Shown here one piece after another: positions 3,227 through 55,535 of a DNA stretch of 64,000 nucleotides. The notes below the pieces were generated by a model. The model did no database searches, was not told where the DNA came from, and worked only from the letters and a program-made list of their open reading frames with translations. Made by a program: the position numbers and the translations under genes. The first letter of the stretch is position 1; the number at the start of each line of letters is the position of its first letter. Source of the DNA: Clostridia bacterium (GTDB lineage Bacteria > Bacillota > Clostridia > Oscillospirales > CAG-272); the NCBI GenBank assembly GCA_017482355.1, contig JAFUNJ010000002.1, positions 11,092 to 75,091 of the forward strand, read 5' to 3'.

Positions 3227-3278
3227 AGTGCGGTTCTCCTTGTGGGTTAGAATAGAGATATATAAGCTTTTATTGAAT

Positions 3279-3412
3279 GGCTCCCTTGTGTAAAGGGAGC
3301 TGTCGACGAAGTCGACTGAGAGATTGTTATAAAAACGTTTCTAACTTTTTACAATCCCTCAGTCATTTGCTCCGCAAATGCCACCTCCCTTTACACAAGG
3401 GAGGCATTTACG
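3279..3412. repeat. Hairpin-chain intergenic repeat, family 2 (inverted copy of 9987-10182)
   Basis: Chain of stem-loops: ctccctt/aagggag, gtcgac-gaa-gtcgac (3302-3316), catttgc-tcc-gcaaatg and cctccct/agggagg. The reverse complement aligns by eye with 9987-10043 and 10133-10176. Confidence 0.75.
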
Positions 3413-3421
3413 TGATCGCCG

Positions 3422-8427: not shown

Positions 8428-8720
8428 TTTTACCACTTTTCTTTGCTCGTGCAAAGAAAAGTTCCAAAAGAAAGCACGCCAAGGGGAAAACCGATAAAAA
8501 CGCGTTCGCGTTTTTTATACGTTTTCCCCTTTGGAAACCCCTTTCGTTTTAAGGAAGATTTACCACGTTGTCTTGCCTTCCCCTCAGGGGAAGGTGGCGG
8601 CGAAGCCGTCGGATGAGGTGTAGGTTGCGAAGCAACCGTGTGTTGAAGGAAAGTAACATCGTTTTTGCACGGAAGGGGGACCCCTTCCCCACGAGAATGA
8701 TTTTATATTTTTTCGCAATA
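8428..8720. repeat. Modular hairpin-chain intergenic repeat, family 1
   Basis: Nested and serial stem-loops at 8436-8461, 8494-8518, 8576-8594, 8596-8610 and 8623-8637. Shares modules with 10832-11075, 39190-39487, 43403-43759 and 54741-54905. 8610-8666 is a perfect reverse-complement copy of 39283-39339. Confidence 0.85.
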
Positions 8721-8721
8721 C

Positions 8722-8748
8722 AAAAAAGGACGGAAGAACCGTCCTTTT
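8722..8748. terminator. Bidirectional terminator between the M14 peptidase gene and hemW
   Basis: A6, ggacgg-aagaa-ccgtcc, T4. Confidence 0.65.
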
Positions 8749-8754
8749 GGGTGA

Positions 8755-9942
8755 TTATTTATCGGTGCCGTTTGCGATGCCTGAGAGGATATCGCTGTCG
8801 AAATCGAACATTGATGAGAGGATATAGTTTGAAACGTACATTCCCTTCGGCGTGAACGACCAGCTTCTGTCCTTCTTACGGACGAAGCCGTTTTTCTCAT
8901 ATTTTTCGAGGTATTTACCGAAGAGACGCTCGAAATCTATTCCGAACGCAGCAGCGAAAAACTCGGTATCTACGCCCTCGCTCAGGCGCATACGGAGCAT
9001 TACGTATTCGCCGATGCGCTCGTTATCTTTGATCTCATAATTTTCGCTCAGGATATCGGGAACGCTGCCCGGCATTTCCATATTCTTAACGTAATCGGAG
9101 ATATTCTTCTTATAAGCGAAGCGGCGGTTTCCGAAATAGGAATGTGCGCCCGGTCCGAAGCCGATATATTCCTCGCAGTTCCAATAGCGCAGGTTATGCA
9201 CACACTGATGTCCCGGCTTCGAGAAGTTACTTATCTCGTACTGCGCGTAGCCCTTTGAGGAAAGATATTCGACCGTATCGAAATACATCTTACACTCGGT
9301 GTCCTCGTCGGGAAGCGCGAGGGTATCCTTTCTTTCGTCAAAGGGTGTTCCCTCCTCGATCTTCAGTCCGTACACCGAGATATGCTCGGGGCGGAGCGCG
9401 GTCACTGTTCTGAGCGTATTTGCGAAGCTTTCGGGGGTCTGATTCGGGATACCGTACATAAGGTCGATGCTTATATTATCGAAGCCCGCCTTACGTGCGA
9501 TACGGTAGCTTTCTTCAAAATCCGCGTAGGTATGTATTCTTCCGAGAGCGCGAAGCTCGTCATCGTTTGCGCTTTGCAGTCCTATGCTGAGACGGTTCAC
9601 GCCTGCGTGACGGAGCTTGCGGAGAGACGCTGTTTTAAGCGTCGCAGGGTTTGCCTCGATAGTGAATTCTGCGTCTCCGCAGACGTTGAAGTTATCATAT
9701 ATGCCGTCGATGACCTTAAGGAGCTGCTTTGTACTCAGCATTGAGGGCGTACCGCCGCCGAAGAAAATACTGTCGACATCGTGGCGCGATGCCGCCTTTG
9801 CATAGTCCTGCATCTGAAGCACTATCGCGTTTACGTATCTGTCTGCACAGGACGAATCGGTTATTGAATAGAAGTCACAGTACGGGCATTTACTTTGGCA
9901 AAATGGAAAATGGATATATAAGCCGAGAGTTTTATCTGTCAT
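8755..9942 (-). CDS. hemW: Radical SAM heme chaperone HemW (HemN-like)
   Basis: 395 aa. LYIHFPFCQSKCPYCDF (CxxxCxxC) and a HemN_C-like C-terminus. Confidence 0.9.
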   Translation of the reverse strand: MTDKTLGLYIHFPFCQSKCPYCDFYSITDSSCADRYVNAIVLQMQDYAKAASRHDVDSIFFGGGTPSMLSTKQLLKVIDGIYDNFNVCGDAEFTIEANPATLKTASLRKLRHAGVNRLSIGLQSANDDELRALGRIHTYADFEESYRIARKAGFDNISIDLMYGIPNQTPESFANTLRTVTALRPEHISVYGLKIEEGTPFDERKDTLALPDEDTECKMYFDTVEYLSSKGYAQYEISNFSKPGHQCVHNLRYWNCEEYIGFGPGAHSYFGNRRFAYKKNISDYVKNMEMPGSVPDILSENYEIKDNERIGEYVMLRMRLSEGVDTEFFAAAFGIDFERLFGKYLEKYEKNGFVRKKDRSWSFTPKGMYVSNYILSSMFDFDSDILSGIANGTDK

Positions 9943-9986: not shown

Positions 9987-10182
9987 CGTATTTAGCCTCC
10001 CTCCGGGAGGGAGGTGACATTTGCGCAGCAAATGACGGAGGGAGCCCGCGATGTAAATGATTACGAAGAAGATACCCTTCTCATCCAAGGCGGATCCATA
10101 AATATTTGTCATCAAAAGTATCTCGCCCGAAGGCTCCTCCACCGCCTTCGGCGGAGCCCCCTCCCAGAGGGAGCCACAAAGG
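9987..10182. repeat. Hairpin-chain intergenic repeat, family 2
   Basis: cctccct-ccgg-agggagg, catttgc-gca-gcaaatg, ccgcc-ttc-ggcgg and ctccc-aga-gggag. Both ends align with the reverse complement of 3279-3412. Confidence 0.75.
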
Positions 10183-10831: not shown

Positions 10832-11075
10832 TCATTTGCAGGGGAGGTGTCTCCCTCTCGCATAAAACAATGTTACATCGTTTTAAAACACCTCATTCAC
10901 CGCTACCGCGGCCCCCTTCCCCAAGGGGAAGGCAAGACAACGTGGCAAAGCTTCATTAAATCGAAAGGGGGTTCCAAAGGGGAAAACGTGTGCAGAATTT
11001 TGCCTTTGCAAAATTCAAACCCGTTGTCACCTTGGTGCCGTTCTTTGCTGTAGGTTTGCGAAGCAAAACTACTCA
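10832..11075. repeat. Modular hairpin-chain intergenic repeat, family 1
   Basis: Contains aaaacaatgttac (10864-10876), ccttccccaaggggaagg (10915-10932), aaatcgaaagggggttccaaaggggaaaacgt (10958-10989), hairpin 10995-11016 and gtttgc-gaa-gcaaa. Confidence 0.85.
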
Positions 11076-15752: not shown

Positions 15753-15756
15753 ATTG

Positions 15757-15788
15757 AAACACGCTCTCAAAAGAGGGCGTGTTTTTTT
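15757..15788 (+). terminator. Rho-independent terminator of the pot operon
   Basis: acacgctctc-aaaa-gagggcgtgt followed by T7. Confidence 0.8.
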
Positions 15789-15878
15789 GGAAATAGTGTT
15801 ACATCACACCAAAACGATGTTGCATCGTTTTGCGACACTGATGCAAAAAACAACCGAGCATTTGCTCGGTTGTTTCTC
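15789..15878. repeat. Short family-1-related hairpin block
   Basis: aaaacgatg-ttg-catcgtttt (contains the aaaacgatgttgc word) and acaaccgagc-attt-gctcggttgt. Confidence 0.6.
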
Positions 15879-16394
15879 TATATTCAGTTTTTTATTTCCT
15901 TATTTTGTGTTTCTTAACTTATCTTGTTTCCGACTCCGCATGATCTATATGAATCATTTTTCATTTGCGTAATCAAGCTTTCCAACTTCTTCCCTTACGG
16001 CTCGGAAACTCTTTTCTTTTTCGGTTTTCTCTTTTCTTTCAGATTTTCGGTAAGCTGTTTTTTCTCACCCGCGGCTGCGGCTTTTTCATCTCTTAACTTA
16101 CCGTTTATCTTACTTTTTCCTTTTGTGCTCGGCACTTACGGTGTTAAGAAACGATCACGCATTTACGGGTGAATACTGCTGTTCATCTTGTGCCAACGGT
16201 ATCACCACTTTCATTTTTATTCTGCTATTTCCTTTAGCATCTTCATTTTAGCACAACTTTTTCTGTTTGTCAATAGGTTTTTTATAAAATTTTACTAAAA
16301 TTTTGTGAAAATCAGTTTTTGTTAACATCGTGTAACTTTTTAGACGATTCTATTGACATGGGCGACCGACTTAGTGTATAATTAATATGTTAGT

Positions 16395-17104: not shown

Positions 17105-17240
17105 TGCCTCGACGATCCGCGCAAAAACAATGTTGCTTTGCTTACAAGACGGGCGAGCAATGCTCGCCCCTACGAGGACGTTTGGAATCCTCTTGTAGGG
17201 GCGACCATTGGTCGCCCGTGTAAAAACGATGTTGCTCCTT
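17105..17240. repeat. Family-1-related hairpin block
   Basis: cctcgacgatccgcgcaaaaacaatgttgc, gggcgagc-aa-tgctcgccc and gtaggggcgacc-attg-gtcgcccgtgtaaaaacgatgttgc. Confidence 0.7.
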
Positions 17241-22352: not shown

Positions 22353-22441
22353 AAGAAAAAGTCTCCTAATCGGTCAAAATGGGGGGTGTAACGACAAAAA
22401 GTCTCAAAATCATAGGTGGAAAGTAACATTTGTCCCTAAAC

Positions 22442-23455
22442 TCAATCGAAATCAAACGAACCTTTGAATACCGATGTATGGTGGAATTTCAAATATTCAA
22501 CTCTCTTTTCATCCATAGGAAGTGTTTTGACAAAAGCGTCGTTGGTCAAGCCTATTTGTTTCCATGTATATGGAGATATAAATTCCGATAATATGATGTG
22601 TCTTTTCTCTGTAAAGGTAATAAATCCTCTATCAAACAATTTGTCATAAAGTGGAGACAAAATATATCCGTTATAAGGATCTACTTTTTCTTGATCGTTT
22701 GAGGCCGCCCAAGGTTTAATGTGACTTGCAATAAGCAAGCGTTCGTCGGCAATCATCGTAAACGGGCAGAAGCGGCATTGCTCTAAAAGTTGCTCACGGT
22801 ATTTGCCTTGTCCGTCTCTTGCACGAGTTATTTCCTGTCTTTCGGCTTGCTTTTTCTTACTCGTCTTTTCCTCGACTACTTCGGCAGTAGTCTTTCCTTT
22901 TCCATACCGAAATACCAATGGACCGTTTTGCTTTTCCCATATCGCCTCAAAATCCACAAATAATTTCCAGTAATATAGCGGCGCCGTTTCCGTTCCGACT
23001 TTTTCTACATATATGTAACTAACCAACGGCAACGCAATTTGACGAATAATCTGATATCCATCGTCTTTTGAGTTGATATATCCTCTTGGTCCAACAATTT
23101 GATGCTGATCTGAAATATTAAAGAAAATCACATCATCAAGCTTTGAAATCATCTCCATTCGCTTATTCCACAACTCAGGGAGATCCTCTTTCTTGGCGTA
23201 TTCCTGCGAAGGTGCTGTATATTCGTTTTTAATAGCCAACATATAGGATAATAAATCCGCTTTTAACATAAAACACTTGGCTGTGAATTTTTCTCCACCA
23301 TAAAAGTCATACATCTCATCTTTGGACGAAATATAAAATTTCGCTTCGCCGTGCCCGTGTCCTAATTTGTTGCTTCCGACAACTACACAATCGGGAACGG
23401 TCATCATGTTTGGAAATACTGATATTGTTCGTAAAGTTTCACCGTTAACCTTCAT
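22442..23455 (-). CDS. HNH-family restriction endonuclease (type II R subunit candidate)
   Basis: C-terminal HNH_2-type motif CRFCPF...ASHIKPW...NGYILSPLYDKLFDRGFITF. 11-nt overlap with the methyltransferase gene. AT-rich. Confidence 0.8.
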   Translation of the reverse strand: MKVNGETLRTISVFPNMMTVPDCVVVGSNKLGHGHGEAKFYISSKDEMYDFYGGEKFTAKCFMLKADLLSYMLAIKNEYTAPSQEYAKKEDLPELWNKRMEMISKLDDVIFFNISDQHQIVGPRGYINSKDDGYQIIRQIALPLVSYIYVEKVGTETAPLYYWKLFVDFEAIWEKQNGPLVFRYGKGKTTAEVVEEKTSKKKQAERQEITRARDGQGKYREQLLEQCRFCPFTMIADERLLIASHIKPWAASNDQEKVDPYNGYILSPLYDKLFDRGFITFTEKRHIILSEFISPYTWKQIGLTNDAFVKTLPMDEKRVEYLKFHHTSVFKGSFDFD

Positions 23456-24767
23456 AATTTACTCCATACGTTGTAATATCCATCTGCTTTAGAATTGCAA
23501 TAAGAACATCTACAACAATACTATTTCCTGATTGCTGATACATAGATGTATCCGAAACTACAATCTTAAAGGAATCCTTAAAGCCCATCAAGCGTAAACA
23601 TTCGCGTGGTGTAAGTTTTCTAATTCTACCTTTGTGCGTTACATAATTATCAACTCCAGCACGATGCATTTTGTGCATTGTTTGAAGAAGAGGTCTTGCT
23701 ACATCCAAATCTGTTTTGGTAGAAGTTCTAAACCCCTTCGTTCCACCTGCCAAAACATACTTTGCGACTTTTTCGGAAAGATAGTATTTTTCTTCAACAT
23801 CCCTTACGTCAAAAATAAATTCATCAAAATCTTCCTCAAAGGGTTCTCCCTCTGCGACAGGATGATATACGAAATCGCCGTGCCAATTAAACTGTTGATT
23901 CCTCTTTTGACAAAGAGCTATATCGCCATTCACCTGTGTGTAGCTTTTTTCTCTGTTTTTATGACTTGTTACAAATTTAATACCTTTCTCCTTGAGGAAA
24001 TATTTCGTATAAGCGTAGTCTTCCAAAAAGTCGTACATTCTATATTCCAACTCAATTGGAGCAGGAAAACGAAACTCGGTAGGTTTCTTAAATCCTAAGC
24101 AAAAAAGGCGTTCACGATTTTGAGGGATTCCATAATCTTTGCTATTGAGTATTCTAAAATGAACGTCATATCCAAGTTCTTCAAAGATATCATGGATAAC
24201 TTGCCATGTTCTTCCGTTGTCGTGATTTATTAAACCTTTGACATTTTCAAAAAGAAACACTTTAGGTTCGGTTTCCTTTACCACTCTTGCGAACTCATAA
24301 AAAAGTGTTCCGCGTGCATCCTCAAATCCCAAGCGTTTACCTACCATTGAAAACGCCTGACACGGTGCACCGCCAACGATAAAATCAACCTGACCTCTGT
24401 ATTGGGTTGCATCAAATTCTCTAATGTCGGTAAACCAATCATCTTCATTGATTTCATAATTTGCAAAATAACTTTGGCGGCACTTTTCTTCTATATCACC
24501 CGCAAAAACTATTTTGTATTTGAGTTTTAATCTTTGAAAAGCGTGTTCTATTGCTCCTATACCGCTAAAAACAGTGCCCAATCTGACTGTATTATTTGGA
24601 AAAGAAAATGTTTTGGCTTTCCAATCTTCGCTTGATAATTCTTCGGGTGTCGTTTGAAAGGTCTCAACAGCAGACGATCGTGCTTTCACAATTTTTTTGA
24701 CACTATTAATCTTTTCGGACTCTTCATATATGCTTTTTTCTACATCTGTCATTTGTTTACGCATCAT
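23445..24767 (-). CDS. DNA (cytosine-5)-methyltransferase
   Basis: Motifs I FSGIGAIEHAF, IV GGAPCQAFS, VI ENVKGL, VIII QNRERLF, IX-like TPRECLRLMGF and X GNSIVVDV. Confidence 0.93.
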   Translation of the reverse strand: MMRKQMTDVEKSIYEESEKINSVKKIVKARSSAVETFQTTPEELSSEDWKAKTFSFPNNTVRLGTVFSGIGAIEHAFQRLKLKYKIVFAGDIEEKCRQSYFANYEINEDDWFTDIREFDATQYRGQVDFIVGGAPCQAFSMVGKRLGFEDARGTLFYEFARVVKETEPKVFLFENVKGLINHDNGRTWQVIHDIFEELGYDVHFRILNSKDYGIPQNRERLFCLGFKKPTEFRFPAPIELEYRMYDFLEDYAYTKYFLKEKGIKFVTSHKNREKSYTQVNGDIALCQKRNQQFNWHGDFVYHPVAEGEPFEEDFDEFIFDVRDVEEKYYLSEKVAKYVLAGGTKGFRTSTKTDLDVARPLLQTMHKMHRAGVDNYVTHKGRIRKLTPRECLRLMGFKDSFKIVVSDTSMYQQSGNSIVVDVLIAILKQMDITTYGVNYEG

Positions 24768-39126: not shown

Positions 39127-39160
39127 GACACCCTTTGGCATTTGTCAAAGGGTGTTTTCG
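39127..39160 (+). terminator. Rho-independent terminator of the GH2 operon
   Basis: acacccttt-ggcatttgtc-aaagggtgt followed by a T-rich run. Confidence 0.65.
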
Positions 39161-39189: not shown

Positions 39190-39487
39190 AAAATTCTGCC
39201 ACCCTTGTAGGGGGCGACCTCTCGGAACCCCAAAAATTCGCGTTCGCTCGTTTCGGGGAACCCCTACCTCGATGCCCCGTATAAAAACGATGTTACTTTC
39301 CTTCAACACACGGTTGCTTCGCAACCTACACCTCATCCGGTCTCGAGTAGTTTGTGCTTCGCACAACCTACCGCTCAACCACCTTCCCCAAGGGGAAGGC
39401 AAGGCGGCGTTCGCTTTACGCGTTATGTAGATAACAGAGTGAGCGTGGGAGCGGCGGACGGTCGGGGACGCCCGTTCCTACAAATTA
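39190..39487. repeat. Modular hairpin-chain intergenic repeat, family 1
   Basis: Modules gtaggggg..., cggggaacccctacctcga (39254-39272), aaaaacgatgttac (39283-39296), ggttgc-ttc-gcaacc, ccttccccaaggggaagg (39382-39399) and gtgagcgtgggagcggcggacggtcgggg (39439-39467). Confidence 0.85.
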
Positions 39488-39540
39488 ACGTTCGATATAC
39501 CTTTGTATGGTGAGAGGTATCCCATCTCGCACAAAAGCAC

Positions 39541-39572
39541 AAAAACAGACGACGTTTCCGTCGTCTGTTTTT
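39541..39572. terminator. Bidirectional terminator (metA 3' end)
   Basis: A5, cagacgacg-tttc-cgtcgtctg, T5. Confidence 0.8.
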
Positions 39573-39573
39573 A

Positions 39574-40497
39574 TTATTTTTCGTCCAATTTTGAAAGGTC
39601 AAACGGCGTCGTCTGGTAGACGAAGTAGTTGAGCCAGTTCGAATAGAGCAGGTTTGCGTGCGAGCGCCAGGTCACGACAGGCGGCTTTGAAACGTCGTCG
39701 TTCGGGAAGTAATTTACCGGAATATGCGGATTTTTGCCTGCTTCGAGATCGCGGAAATACTCGTCCGAGAGCGTGTACGCGTCGTACTCGCTGTGTCCTG
39801 TTATAAATATCTGCTTGCCGTTTTTCGTCGCCATAGCGTAGACTCCGCATTCATCCGACGATGCGAGGATCTTAAGCCCCTCGACCTTCTCTACGTCGGC
39901 GCGGTCGACCGTCGTATGACGGCTCTGCGGAACGGGGAAAACGTCGTCAAATCCGCGCAGGAGCATTGAATTCTTATAATCGGCACGGTGCGGATATACG
40001 CCCGAAAGCTTGCTCGGGAGAGCGTGCTTCTGTATTCCGAAATGGTAGTAGAGACCCGCCTGTGCGCCCCAACAGATGTGGAAGGTACTGTGTACGTGGG
40101 TCTTGCTCCACTCCATTATCTCGCAAAGCTCCTCCCAATATTCGACCTCCTCGAACGGCATCTGCTCAACGGGCGCGCCCGTTATTATCATTCCGTCGAA
40201 GTTGCGGTGCTTTACGTCGGAGAACGTTTTATAGAACTTGAGCATGTGCTCCTTCGCTACGTTTTTCGATTCGTAGGTGCTCGTTTTTATAAGCTCCATT
40301 TCGACCTGAAGCGGTGTGTTTCCAAGCAGACGCGAAAGCTGTGTTTCGGTCTCTATCTTCTTCGGCATCAGGTTCAGTATCAGTATCTGAAGCGGACGTA
40401 TGTCCTGTCCCTCCGCGCGCGTTTCGTCCATCACGAAGATGTTTTCGCGTGATAGGATCTCGGCGGCAGGGAGATTGTTCGGTATCTTGATCGGCAT
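39574..40497 (-). CDS. metA: Homoserine O-acyltransferase MetA
   Basis: 307 aa. [11 protein letters not shown]...[12 protein letters not shown]... typical MetA/HTS family N-terminus and length. Confidence 0.92.
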
Positions 40498-40547: not shown

Positions 40548-40590
40548 TGTGTCGCCTTCCCCAAGGGGAAGGCTTAATTGCGTTCTATCT
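40548..40590. repeat. Solo family-1 module between metY and metA
   Basis: gtcgccttccccaaggggaaggc (hairpin 40555-40572), identical to the hairpin at 10915-10932 and 39382-39399. Confidence 0.75.
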
Positions 40591-43402: not shown

Positions 43403-43759
43403 AGCGTGAGCGCGGGAGCGGCGGACAGTCGAGGCGAGGGGGTCCCCGAAACGAGCGAATGCGAGTTTTGGGGGTTCCCGAGGTTGCCTGTCCCTAAAAA
43501 TCGACGTGGCGAAGCTTCGCCCGAGATTCCGCCGCGCATACGCGCGAACCCCAAAAGCTCGTTGCATTCGCATTTGGGAACCCCGCCGCTTCGGCGCCCT
43601 GCGGGTTCGACTTCGGACTTCGTCCTGCGCTCAGAATGACACGGGCAATCGAAAGGGGTATCCAAAGGGGAAAACGTGTGAAATTTGCTACGCAAATTTC
43701 ACGGTTTGCCTCTTGGCGTGTTTCTTTGGTCACCTTTCTTACACGAGTAAGAAAGGTGA
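43403..43759. repeat. Modular hairpin-chain intergenic repeat, family 1 (longest copy)
   Basis: gtgagcgcgggagcggcggacagtcgagg (43406-43434), ggcgaagcttcgcc palindrome, aatcgaaaggggtatccaaaggggaaaacgt (43647-43677), 11-bp hairpin 43678-43702 and 12-bp hairpin 43730-43759. Confidence 0.85.
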
Positions 43760-50175: not shown

Positions 50176-50268
50176 TAAGGGGAAGGCGAGACAACGTCCC
50201 CGATGCTTCGCCATGTTTTTTGTAGGGACAGGCGTCCTCGACTGTCCGCACAAAAACAATATTACTTA
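50176..50268. repeat. Short family-1 repeat block
   Basis: ggggaaggcgagacaacgt (half of the P hairpin plus its flank), gtagggacaggcgtcctcgactgtccg and aaaaacaatattac (50252-50265). Confidence 0.75.
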
Positions 50269-50270
50269 AC

Positions 50271-50312
50271 AAAAAGATCTGCCCGTAAGCTCTTCCGAGC
50301 TTACGGGCAGAT
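50271..50312 (-). terminator. Rho-independent terminator of the ASRT/creatininase operon
   Basis: 16-bp stem atctgcccgtaagctc-ttcc-gagcttacgggcagat. A T5 run follows on the minus strand. Confidence 0.8.
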
Positions 50313-50316
50313 TTAA

Positions 50317-54740: not shown

Positions 54741-54905
54741 AAAAAAGCACACATTTTCCCCTCCCCAAACCCCTTTCGATTTAAAGAAGCTTTGTGACGT
54801 TTAATTGTAGGGACGGGCAACCTCGGGAACCCCCAAAGCTCATTGCATTCGCTTCGGGGAACCCCTACCTCGACCGTCCGTTACTCCCACGTCCATTATA
54901 TCCGC
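54741..54905. repeat. Modular hairpin-chain intergenic repeat, family 1
   Basis: Reverse-complement copy of aaatcgaaagggg...ggggaaaa (54751-54783), gtagggacgggcaacctcgggaaccccc, cggggaacccctacctcga (54855-54873) and cctcgaccgtccgttactcccac (54868-54890). Confidence 0.85.
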
Positions 54906-55188: not shown

Positions 55189-55275
55189 GCGGGTATGGCG
55201 GAATTGGCAGACGCGCTAGATTCAGGTTCTAGTGGTAGCAATACTGTACAGGTTCAAGTCCTGCTACCCGCACCA
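55189..55275 (+). tRNA. tRNA-Leu (anticodon CAG), class II with a long variable arm, CCA encoded
   Basis: GCGGGTA acceptor pairs with TACCCGC. Anticodon stem CTAGA/TCTAG with loop TTCAGGT. T arm CAGGTTCAAGTCCTG. 87 nt ending in CCA. Confidence 0.95.
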
Positions 55276-55307: not shown

Positions 55308-55490
55308 CAATGATATCCGTTCCCTGCGGTCACGGATGATATACTCTAACGGGTATAATATCTGCTCCGCAGATGATATGCGCTTCGCGCATGAGGGGAA
55401 CGGATATTATATCATGCTTGCTTAGCAAGCATATCATGCGGCGAAGCCGTATATCATATCGCCACAGGCGATAACAACATGACATCTCCA
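55308..55490. repeat. Mini-hairpin array with ATATCAT spacer word
   Basis: Hairpins at 55315-55337, 55360-55374, 55378-55392, 55414-55432, 55439-55449 and 55458-55472 (loops tcc, ttc, tta, gaa, aca). They are separated by atatcat (55409, 55431, 55451) or gatgatat (55335, 55372). Confidence 0.7.
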
Positions 55491-55494
55491 CAAA

Positions 55495-55526
55495 AATCGC
55501 TCGTATGAAACCATACGAGCGATTTT
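55495..55526 (-). terminator. Rho-independent terminator of the sugar-ABC locus
   Basis: atcgctcgtatg-aaac-catacgagcgat flanked by A and T runs. Confidence 0.75.
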
Positions 55527-55535
55527 GTTTTGCAA

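Follow-up and report, generated by a model that had tools for sequence, protein, structure and literature searches.

Repetitive extragenic palindromes (REPs) and their paired form, REPINs, together with the REP-associated tyrosine transposases (RAYTs), are the best-studied long-lived and vertically inherited "replicators" of bacterial genomes, and they have been characterised almost only in Proteobacteria. Here, we describe a family of modular hairpin-chain repeats in a 64,000-nucleotide (nt) stretch of DNA from an uncultured Clostridia bacterium (contig JAFUNJ010000002.1, positions 11,092 to 75,091; hereafter the window). The family is dispersed, extragenic, structure-conserving, and rapidly turning over, and is built around a GTAG-tagged REP core; it is a previously undescribed family of the REP/bacterial interspersed mosaic element (BIME) type that carries the sequence-level features by which REP/BIME and REPIN systems are defined. 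A REP is a GT[AG]G tetranucleotide followed by an imperfect palindrome, and TnpA_REP of E. coli binds and cleaves GTAG REPs in single-stranded DNA (PMC3733652, PMC6006769). The 2013 survey of GTAG REPs reported them only from Proteobacteria, Cyanobacteria, Chloroflexi, and the PVC group; Firmicutes were not among them (PMC3733652). With its new composite unit and nested mini-insertions, the REP/BIME-type population of the window is a rich one and belongs to an uncultured lineage of gut Clostridia.

Comparison with known repeat systems

The closest described system is the enterobacterial REP/BIME with its RAYT, TnpA_REP, which together form the REPtron of the GTAG-3 family (PMC3733652). Common to both are the GTAG foot and imperfect palindrome, short- and long-loop variants, clusters of palindromes joined by conserved linkers, an extragenic position mostly downstream of genes, and the association of the REP type with the gene of a Y1 HUH homologue of TnpA_REP, which in our case lies in other gut bacteria. 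The differences are that the host is a Firmicute (Clostridia), that the composite unit reaches a greater length (about 145 nt) and holds five hairpins, of which four have no GTAG tag, that many stem types coexist in one genome, and that units are often direct rather than alternating; moreover, the cognate gene was not found in the DNA seen of this genome, and in relatives the REP pair sits inside the transposase open reading frame (ORF).

With the Pseudomonas REPIN-RAYT system (GTAG-1; Bertels and Rainey, PMC3116915, PMC5581495) the family shares inverted REP doublets with a conserved spacer (here at 17150-17218), the coexistence of several REP types plausibly matched to several RAYT lineages, and vertical persistence across related species with turnover of copies. 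The spacer, however, is about 20 nt here against about 70 nt in Pseudomonas, and doublets are a minority here, most REPs lying in longer mosaic chains. Abundant REPINs have been reported only with RAYT groups 2 and 3, which are proteobacterial, whereas group 1 has been noted to occur in Clostridia as well and has not been tied to abundant repeats (PMC5581495). The SMAG repeats of Stenotrophomonas maltophilia (GTAG families 6-9) likewise comprise several GTAG hairpin subfamilies per genome that occur as singles, dimers, and clusters. They are unrelated in sequence and phylum, and we know of no description of a composite unit with conserved linkers among them.

An earlier reading of the window from its letters and ORFs (the sequence-only reading) had described a REP/BIME/BOX-like modular hairpin-chain family that it did not recognise. 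This description was supported and can be sharpened, REP/BIME being the right analogy, whereas the BOX and Correia elements that it also offered are architectural look-alikes only. Pneumococcal BOX is modular (boxA, repeated boxB, boxC), intergenic, strongly structured, variable in module number, and resident in a Gram-positive host, but its module order is fixed, it has neither a GTAG palindrome nor a link to a Y1 transposase, and there is no sequence similarity, so the analogy is one of architecture. Neisseria Correia (NEMIS) and enterobacterial ERIC/IRU elements, which resemble MITEs (miniature inverted-repeat transposable elements), likewise form hairpins, are small, dispersed, and intergenic, and come in long and short variants; the blocks of the window, however, lack the defined terminal inverted repeats and the fixed length class of these elements, and also the TA duplication of Correia.

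Modules shared among nine intergenic blocks

The window (48.4% G+C) is 99.99% identical to metagenome contigs of one uncultured organism in ENA (e.g., ERZ28654584 scaffold_111), and Pfam listings for the window and its flanks give an ordinary set of genes. The nine blocks (8428-8720, 10832-11075, 15789-15878, 17105-17240, 39190-39487, 40548-40590, 43403-43759, 50176-50268, and 54741-54905) total 1,719 nt, which amounts to 2.7% of the window and roughly one-quarter of its ~7.2 kb of intergenic DNA; their density is one per 7 kb, for which the window is the only unbiased sample. Our analysis confirmed that the sharing of modules among all nine is far beyond chance. The hairpin CCTTCCCC-N2-3-GGGGAAGG, module (a), stands exactly where it had been placed, at 8576, 10915, 39382, and 40555 (4 matches vs. 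0.00 expected), with the half copy GGGGAAGG at 50178. The word of module (b), AAAAACRATRTTRC, matches with at most one mismatch at 8653 (minus strand), 10863, 15810, 17123, 17222, 39283, and 50252 (7 matches vs. 0.23 expected; none of 100 shuffles reached 7). Module (e) recurs at 8519 (minus strand), 10962, and 43650 (3 matches vs. 0 expected), with a diverged copy at 54747-54801.

Self-BLASTN of the window bore out modules (c) and (d) as well as the long and short variants, with block-to-block matches of up to 98 nt: 8610-8666 equals the reverse complement of 39283-39339 (100% over 57 nt), 8519-8602 resembles that of 10907-10989 (89%), 43422-43518 that of 54786-54880 (81%), and 39224-39265 that of 43437-43478, while 39248-39272 resembles 54849-54873 directly. 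The GTAG foot TTGTAGGG has 5 matches in the window against 0.86 expected. Predicted folds of the blocks are chains of stem-loops, as had been proposed, and the GAA/TTC triloops are enriched (36 GCGAAGC/GCTTCGC hairpins vs. 18.4 expected). Canonical terminators do adjoin blocks, terminator-like hairpins being present at 8724-8748, 15848-15875, 39127-39156, 39539-39574, and 50275-50314. An Rfam 15 scan of the window passed the gathering score only for the tRNA at 55189-55272 and placed no family on the blocks, at that score or at E up to 1. A 12-nt fragment at 22418, which had been counted as a further copy of module (b), is too short to count. The restriction-modification island that it was said to border (22442-24767) holds a cytosine-5 DNA methylase gene (PF00145) beside an HNH_2 nuclease gene.

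A composite unit of about 145 nt

Side-by-side comparison of many copies showed the modules to be parts of a single composite unit of ~145 nt. The unit opens with the word AAAAACRATGTTAC, a short variable stretch, the linker ACACCTCATCC, hairpin H1, which is variable in sequence and often has a GAA/TTC triloop, and hairpin H2 (CCTTCCCC..GGGGAAGG); it continues with the linker CAAGACAACG, hairpin H3 (GGCGAAGCTTCGCC-like), ACGTTRT-TTGTAGGG, hairpin H4, and GCRY, after which the word returns. The word is also the 5' half of a further hairpin, AAAACGATGTTRCATCGTTTT (H5), seen at 10864 and 15811. Units can run head to tail with the word or H2 in common, and the blocks are units cut off at varying module borders in either orientation. 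A covariance model built from ten units gave seven matches with E <0.01 in the window, all within the nine blocks, and 108 matches with E <=0.001 in ~400 kb of related loci.

The linkers ACACCTCATCC, CAAGACAACG(T), and ACGTTRT, as well as word b, recur between variable hairpins, which is the linker feature of BIMEs; regular alternation of REP orientation, another BIME feature, is absent, units within a chain being mostly direct. Since this alternation is absent and the cognate gene is putative, we file the family as REP/BIME-like and not as a member of a named family. Tandem Repeats Finder reported no array in the window blocks or in the chain of a related locus (L046), because neighbouring units have common linkers but different hairpins.

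Conserved stems of the GTAG core

H4 with its 5' foot, TTGTAGGG followed by a stem-loop of 6-8 bp, has the form of a GTAG-tagged REP. The foot lies directly 5' of the stem at 17193, 39205, 50220, and 54805; minus-strand instances include those at 17173 and 39482. About 12 GTAG hairpins are present in the window, a GTGG variant occurs at 8668-8693, and the head with its hairpin is likewise found in 49 related loci (see below). The stems are of six or more types, which recur within the window and from species to species. Three of them (GGGGCG/CGCCCC, GGACAG/CTGTCC, and GGTGCG/CGCACC) have the loop GTCCYCGA in common, and the others are GGCGGGGG/CTCCCGCC, GGGCGACC/GGTCGCCC, and GGGAGGGG/CCCCTCCC. 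The palindrome occurs alone, within the composite unit, or as a head-to-head doublet; doublets are common and have a conserved spacer of ~20 nt, as at 17150-17218, with ..TTGAACGT.. in the spacer at eight related loci (L011, L014, L016, L020, L022, L034, L039, and L041). Optionally, a second GTAG hairpin, GTAGGTTGCGAAGCAACC, is present on the opposite strand. By eye the hairpins were also compared with attC sites, and this candidate was rejected as the R''/R' core consensus is missing.

Stems are kept by compensation while their sequence varies. Among 138 distinct REP 30-mers, which were picked by head and loop only, stem positions pair in 95.6% of cells compared with 82.6% in shuffles, and the variable stem pairs 9-26, 10-25, and 11-24 carry 38, 81, and 30 double changes, respectively. 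The 108 units aligned by the covariance model pair in 91.8% of cells (79.6% in shuffles), show compensatory changes in 27 of 27 pairs, and reach a covariation score of 0.267, whereas shuffles score 0.114 and slid controls no more than 0.084; this alignment was fitted to the model and is thereby biased towards the structure. G.T wobbles outnumber A.C mismatches in this model-fitted alignment (171 vs. 82), a weak hint that the GTAG-bearing strand may be the one that folds. Pair counts were used because a maximum-stem statistic with G.T allowed is uninformative for G+C-rich segments.

Genomic location and spread

We scanned one genome per species of GTDB for the REP and word in a joint pattern and obtained 67 loci, of which 49 belong to eight related species of uncultured Clostridia/Eubacteriales represented by metagenome-assembled genomes (MAGs); the remainder are single chance matches in unrelated phyla. 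The modules are hence not confined to the window, the full set being present in at least eight related MAG species. Among these loci the closest GTDB representative is the MAG "Clostridia bacterium RGIG8739" (JAGASS), with ~92% identity in genes. A scan of viral contigs gave two chance matches only, and a phage origin was rejected on that ground.

Location was counted over the window and the 49 related loci; these were chosen by the pattern itself, so densities are inflated. Although 84% of this DNA is coding, REPs and word b are found almost entirely outside ORFs (193 of 200 and 84 of 86 copies, respectively), and an 11-mer sharing map of the window, noisy at its three-locus threshold, gave no convincing intragenic copies. 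Intergenic regions between convergent genes hold 43 REPs and 17 words as against 9 and 3 in divergent ones, which makes the modules four to six times commoner there with like numbers of regions (44 convergent, 41 divergent). Relative to a flanking co-directional gene there is no preferred orientation (REP 40 same vs. 47 opposite, word 19 vs. 19), the linker being split 15 vs. 31. The siting at gene 3' ends or in convergent gaps that had been noted from the sequence holds as a 3'-end bias and not as a rule, as the blocks at 10832-11075, 15789-15878, and 17105-17240 lie between co-directional genes and are thus situated upstream of the following gene too. Inside blocks, at 39267, 50245, and 50247, short-read (Logan) contigs from the strain of the window come to an end, which is expected of multi-copy repeats and shows that they fragment MAG assemblies. 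Such repeats break short-read gut MAG assemblies and create spurious ORFs, and could serve as strain-typing markers.

Turnover and a nested mini-element

Related species, 78-93% identical in genes, carry differing module sets at orthologous intergenic sites. In L046, the site orthologous to window 15753-16394 is filled by a chain of ~500 nt, as against a single hairpin in the window; where the window has a lone H2 (40555-40572), L053 and L058 carry three to five further modules; and at 3227-3421 the window has an unrelated inverted-repeat element where L055 has a REP doublet between identical flanks. One occupied site is common to four species with a different chain in each, and some chains keep the same architecture with swapped REP stem types. 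The unrelated element just mentioned, GGCTCCCTTGTGTAAAGGGAGC ... CTCCCTTTACACAAGGGAGGC, is present at window 3278-3400 and 9995-10046 and at 207-330 of L059, and had not been listed by the sequence-only reading. Beside the largest repeat block, the segment 42496-43400, which comprises two small genes (YpsA-like and an HTH_3 regulator) and their flanks, is absent from the orthologous region of L058 and represents an insertion or deletion between the species.

Four REP types carry, nested in their loops, a mini-element of ~41 nt, GGAACCCCC..GGGGAACCCC, which is also nested in a linker. Its window copies are 39224-39264, 54826-54865, the reverse complement 43437-43478, and a diverged copy at 43547-43585. 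Each of the 23 copies found in related loci comes after a CTC or TTG site, and most show a target duplication of 3-6 nt (e.g., ACCTCG, GCTC), the duplication length varying from 3 to 8 nt overall; one orthologous pair is empty in L055 and filled in L068. This nesting in the REP loop explains the long and short variants reported earlier, 39439-39482 being short and 43406-43497 and 54805-54895 long.

RAYT-like genes and the REP core in other gut bacteria

A metagenome scan for the REP core alone (TTGTAGGGNNNGRCGTCCYCGRC) returned at least 120 loci, many from human and other gut samples. The word and the other linkers occur in none of the 120 loci listed, and the core thus has a far wider distribution than the composite unit. 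A RAYT-like ORF stands at or beside the match in seven of the 120 listed loci. These ORFs match the NCBIfam model "REP-associated tyrosine transposase" with E from 4e-20 to 3e-12, under the equivalog cut-off and far above their scores with the IS200 model, and both the HUH and the Tyr motif of E. coli YafM are retained. Searched against PDB sequences, their profile found only TnpA_REP (4ER8, E 1e-10), which is also the best fold match of the predicted structure (predicted local distance difference test, pLDDT, 76; E 9e-9, template-modelling score, TM, 0.60), followed by IS200/IS605 transposases.

Two loci are instructive. L134 1-1715 is a REPtron in an A+T-rich gut metagenome contig, whose RAYT-like ORF (740-1258) has no in-ORF REPs but is preceded by four direct and one inverted REP and followed by three inverted REPs, one with an inserted loop. 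In the MAG contig L208, the RAYT-like gene contains a REP identical at 30 of 30 positions to window 50220-50249, and 4.3 kb from it the contig also has extragenic REPs of the window's d type (the GGGCGACC type). The REP core of the window is thus tied to TnpA_REP homologues in related gut bacteria. The homologues P0072, P0017, P0006, P0113, and P0097 were examined for window-type linkers, and none lies in a contig that has them.

Most RAYT-like genes found hold the REP inside the reading frame, twice and inverted, with the HUH motif between the copies, the first of which encodes IVGxGVxDxP and the second GxSRTPxPT. In the L208 gene (9224-9745) the copies are at 9347-9377 and 9515-9543, and such pairs are also present in L139, L142, L188, L193, L203, L207, and L210. 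At E of 1e-10 or lower the family has no fewer than 7,993 relatives, which their sources call "REP element-mobilizing transposase RayT" or list as hypothetical proteins from Clostridia, Ruminococcaceae, or Oscillospiraceae. Among the best 120 of them the two peptides covary, with few exceptions, as reverse-complement DNA copies must (TGVLDCP/GQSRTPVPT, DGVLDVP/GTSRTPSPT, GGVPDAP/GASRTPPPT, TGVLDGP/GPSRTPVPT), and in the predicted structure both are low-confidence loops flanking the HUH strand. No description of such an in-frame REP pair was found in the literature searched, and much of the interest of the repeats comes from it. Tentatively, and with rather more doubt than conviction, we raise the idea that gut Clostridia host a large undescribed REP-RAYT world, in which an in-frame inverted REP pair flanks HUH in thousands of genes, stem types correspond to distinct RAYT lineages, and the window lineage is one whose escaped REPs build five-hairpin BIME-like chains. 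If so, a RAYT-like gene would carry its own substrate, suggesting self-regulation or self-excision of the catalytic segment, and a functional pair would offer a direct handle on the mutual regulation of a domesticated transposase and its repeats.

Possible origin of the repeats

The probable explanation, in our view, is that the repeats are a REP/BIME-type family of non-autonomous single-stranded DNA elements mobilised in trans by a RAYT-like Y1 HUH transposase encoded elsewhere in the genome; as no RAYT gene lies in the ~75 kb seen of this genome, we infer the mobilisation in trans. The transposase would recognise the GTAG foot and hairpin on one strand and would cut and rejoin that strand, for instance at replication forks, by which hairpin modules would be copied or moved. 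New modules would land preferentially in or beside existing hairpins, whose loops would expose CTC-containing single strands, and clusters would grow as mosaics reshuffled by recombination between copies. Insertions in coding sequence and divergent promoter regions would be removed by selection, and those that survive would gather between convergent terminators and downstream of genes. Should the repeats act on mRNA 3' ends at all, for example in stabilisation or termination, such an effect would be secondary.

Several observations weigh against this explanation. A tblastn search with YafM, IS200, and IS608 TnpA and four RAYT-like proteins detected no RAYT-like ORF in about 400 kb in all, comprising the window, 11 kb of flanking DNA, and the 49 loci from the eight MAG species, which were not chosen to find a transposase gene; RAYTs are normally single-copy. 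H1, H2, H3, H5, and module (e) have no GTAG tag, and their mobilisation is left unexplained. Y1 transposases of the IS200/IS605 type make no target duplications, so the duplications of 3-6 nt at the mini-element fit microhomology-mediated copying or another enzyme better. RAYT-like loci of other Clostridia (L203-207, L209, and L210) have no extragenic REPs or window-type linkers nearby, which is indicative that having the gene does not by itself mean proliferation. Recent movement is not visible either: the presence/absence polymorphism between strains that had been suggested as a check does not appear among 11 same-species contigs, which are 99.96-100% identical with no indel in any block and are evidence neither for nor against recent movement.

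Conceivably, the chains could be shuffled with no transposase at all, if hairpins stall replication and template switching or gene conversion proceeds through microhomologies of 3-6 nt, the GTAG head being an unused relic of an ancient REP system. This would account for the duplicated or microhomologous bases (ACCTCG, GCTC, TTG, and GTGT) at the junctions of the mini-element and of the optional GTAG hairpin, for orthologous chains that swap hairpin types within a kept architecture in a conversion-like manner (L009 vs. L027), for the missing RAYT in ~400 kb of the lineage, and for the many modules, the majority, that have no GTAG tag. Yet modules at many unlinked loci in eight species, with stem types that recur across species, require dispersal and not local rearrangement alone; GTAG and loop are kept while stems covary, a pattern expected for recognition by a protein, and an identical REP is tied to RAYT-like genes elsewhere, all of which makes shuffling by itself unlikely. 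That the arrays are functional RNA, hairpins in 3' untranslated regions (UTRs) serving to stabilise the mRNAs upstream of them, as sites of termination or processing, or as sources of small RNAs, with their spread incidental, strikes us as unlikelier still. E. coli REPs do protect mRNA 3' ends (PMC3733652), the modules lie downstream of genes, some within a 3' UTR before the terminator (50178-50265, 8428-8720), the compensatory covariation is strong, and the excess of G.T over A.C would suit one folded strand; but covariation cannot separate RNA from single-stranded DNA, and the wobble count comes from the model-fitted alignment. Moreover, REP, word b, and linker show no orientation bias to the flanking gene, the block 39190-39487 lies between two convergent terminators and so outside both transcription units, no Rfam family matches, and the content of orthologous sites is not conserved.

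Classical MITEs, that is, deletion derivatives of insertion sequences with a DDE transposase, with terminal inverted repeats and fixed target-site duplications, are a very remote alternative. The nested element of ~41 nt with its 3-6 nt duplication does behave like a tiny MITE, and the unrelated element at 3278-3400 has clear terminal inverted repeats; the blocks as wholes, however, have no common termini, terminal inverted repeats, or constant length, the Pfam listings hold no transposase of any kind in the window or flanks, and duplications were seen for the mini-element only, at varying lengths of 3-8 nt. MITEs of Porphyromonas gingivalis had been considered as a candidate and were dropped, as gene content and related MAGs point to Clostridia.

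Arrangement of modules within the blocks

The first block begins with module (e) on the minus strand (8435-8552), which consists of a hairpin (8435-8462), a long inverted repeat CCAAGGGGAAAAC..GTTTTCCCCTTTGG (8481-8531), and the tail CCCCTTTCGTTTTAAGG; it was delimited by self-BLASTN palindromes, by its match to 10907-10989 and 43650-43740, and by the pattern match at 8519-8546. A composite unit on the minus strand follows (8553-8693; pattern matches and fold), with an H3-like stretch, H2 (8576-8594), H1 GGCGGCGAAGCCGTC (8597-8611), the linker GGATGAGGTGT (the reverse complement of ACACCTCATCC), the optional GTAG hairpin GTAGGTTGCGAAGCAACC on the plus strand (8620-8637), word b (8653-8666), and the REP with the GTGG head. 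The covariance model matches this block at 8479-8645 and 8653-8762, both on the minus strand. In the second block, a plus-strand composite unit (10863-10957; covariance-model match 10863-10975, 64.6 bits, E 3e-11) comprises the H5 hairpin AAAACAATGTTACATCGTTTT with word b, the linker AACACCTCATTC, H1, H2 (10915-10932), the linker CAAGACAACGT, and a partial H3. It is continued on the same strand by a full copy of module (e) (10958-11048; self-BLASTN and pattern match) and, by its sequence, a GTAG-tagged hairpin TGTAGGTTTGCGAAGCAAAACTAC (11049-11072) of the same module type as 8620-8637. The third block holds an isolated plus-strand H5 hairpin, AAAACGATGTTGCATCGTTTT (15810-15832; fold and word match), with word b and its complement, adjoining the terminator at 15848-15875. 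The fourth is a head-to-head, REPIN-like doublet on the plus strand (17123-17235; covariance-model match of 34.9 bits), in which word b (17123-17136), a minus-strand REP CGGGCGAGCAATGCTCGCCCCTAC (17150-17173), a 19-nt spacer, a plus-strand REP TTGTAGGGGCGACCATTGGTCGCCCG (17193-17218), and word b (17222-17235) succeed one another.

The block at 39190-39487 starts with a plus-strand GTAG REP with the stem GGGGCG/..GCCCC (39205-39279; sequence and pattern match), whose loop holds the mini-element at 39224-39264. The next segment, also on the plus strand (39283-39371), carries word b (39283-39296), a minus-strand GTAG hairpin (39312-39329), the linker ACACCTCATCC (39329-39339), and a second minus-strand GTAG hairpin (39347-39371), and includes the 57 nt identical to the reverse complement of 8610-8666. 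Then come an H2 hairpin, CCTTCCCCAAGGGGAAGG (39382-39399; pattern match), and a minus-strand short-loop REP (39439-39482; reverse complement TTGTAGGAACGGGCGTCCCCGACCGTCC) with the tail GCCGCTCCCACGCTCAC, which is module (c), identified by self-BLASTN and a covariance-model match at 39454-39479 (minus strand). A solitary H2 hairpin (40555-40572; pattern match) forms the sixth block. In the largest block, a minus-strand long-loop REP with tail c (43406-43497), nesting the mini-element at 43437-43478 and with its head degenerated to CCCTAA, was found by self-BLASTN to 39224-39265, 39425-39464, and 54786-54880. It is followed by a segment (43508-43585) with an H3-type hairpin GGCGAAGCTTCGCC (43508-43521) and the diverged mini-element copy (43547-43585; self-BLASTN, 43546-43584 resembling 54827-54865), and by a plus-strand module (e) (43647-43729; self-BLASTN and pattern match) that leads into the terminator at 43730-43759.

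The best covariance-model match of the window (74.9 bits, E 3e-13) is a truncated plus-strand unit at 50178-50265, made of half an H2, the linker GAGACAACGT, H3, a REP of type b TTGTAGGGACAGGCGTCCTCGACTGTCCGC (50220-50249) with the loop GTCCTCGA, and word b (50252-50265). The last block has a partial and diverged module (e) on the minus strand (54747-54801; 84% identity of 10939-10993 to its reverse complement) and a plus-strand long-loop REP of type b (54805-54895; sequence and pattern match), with the nested mini-element at 54826-54865, ACCTCG duplicated, and the tail TTACTCCCACG. Downstream of this block, in the long intergenic region just 3' of the tRNA at 55189-55272, two sub-threshold matches to the Rfam Gut-1 RNA (RF01706) were noted at 55308-55384 (plus strand, 32.8 bits) and 55426-55527 (minus strand, 29.7 bits), against a gathering score of 50.

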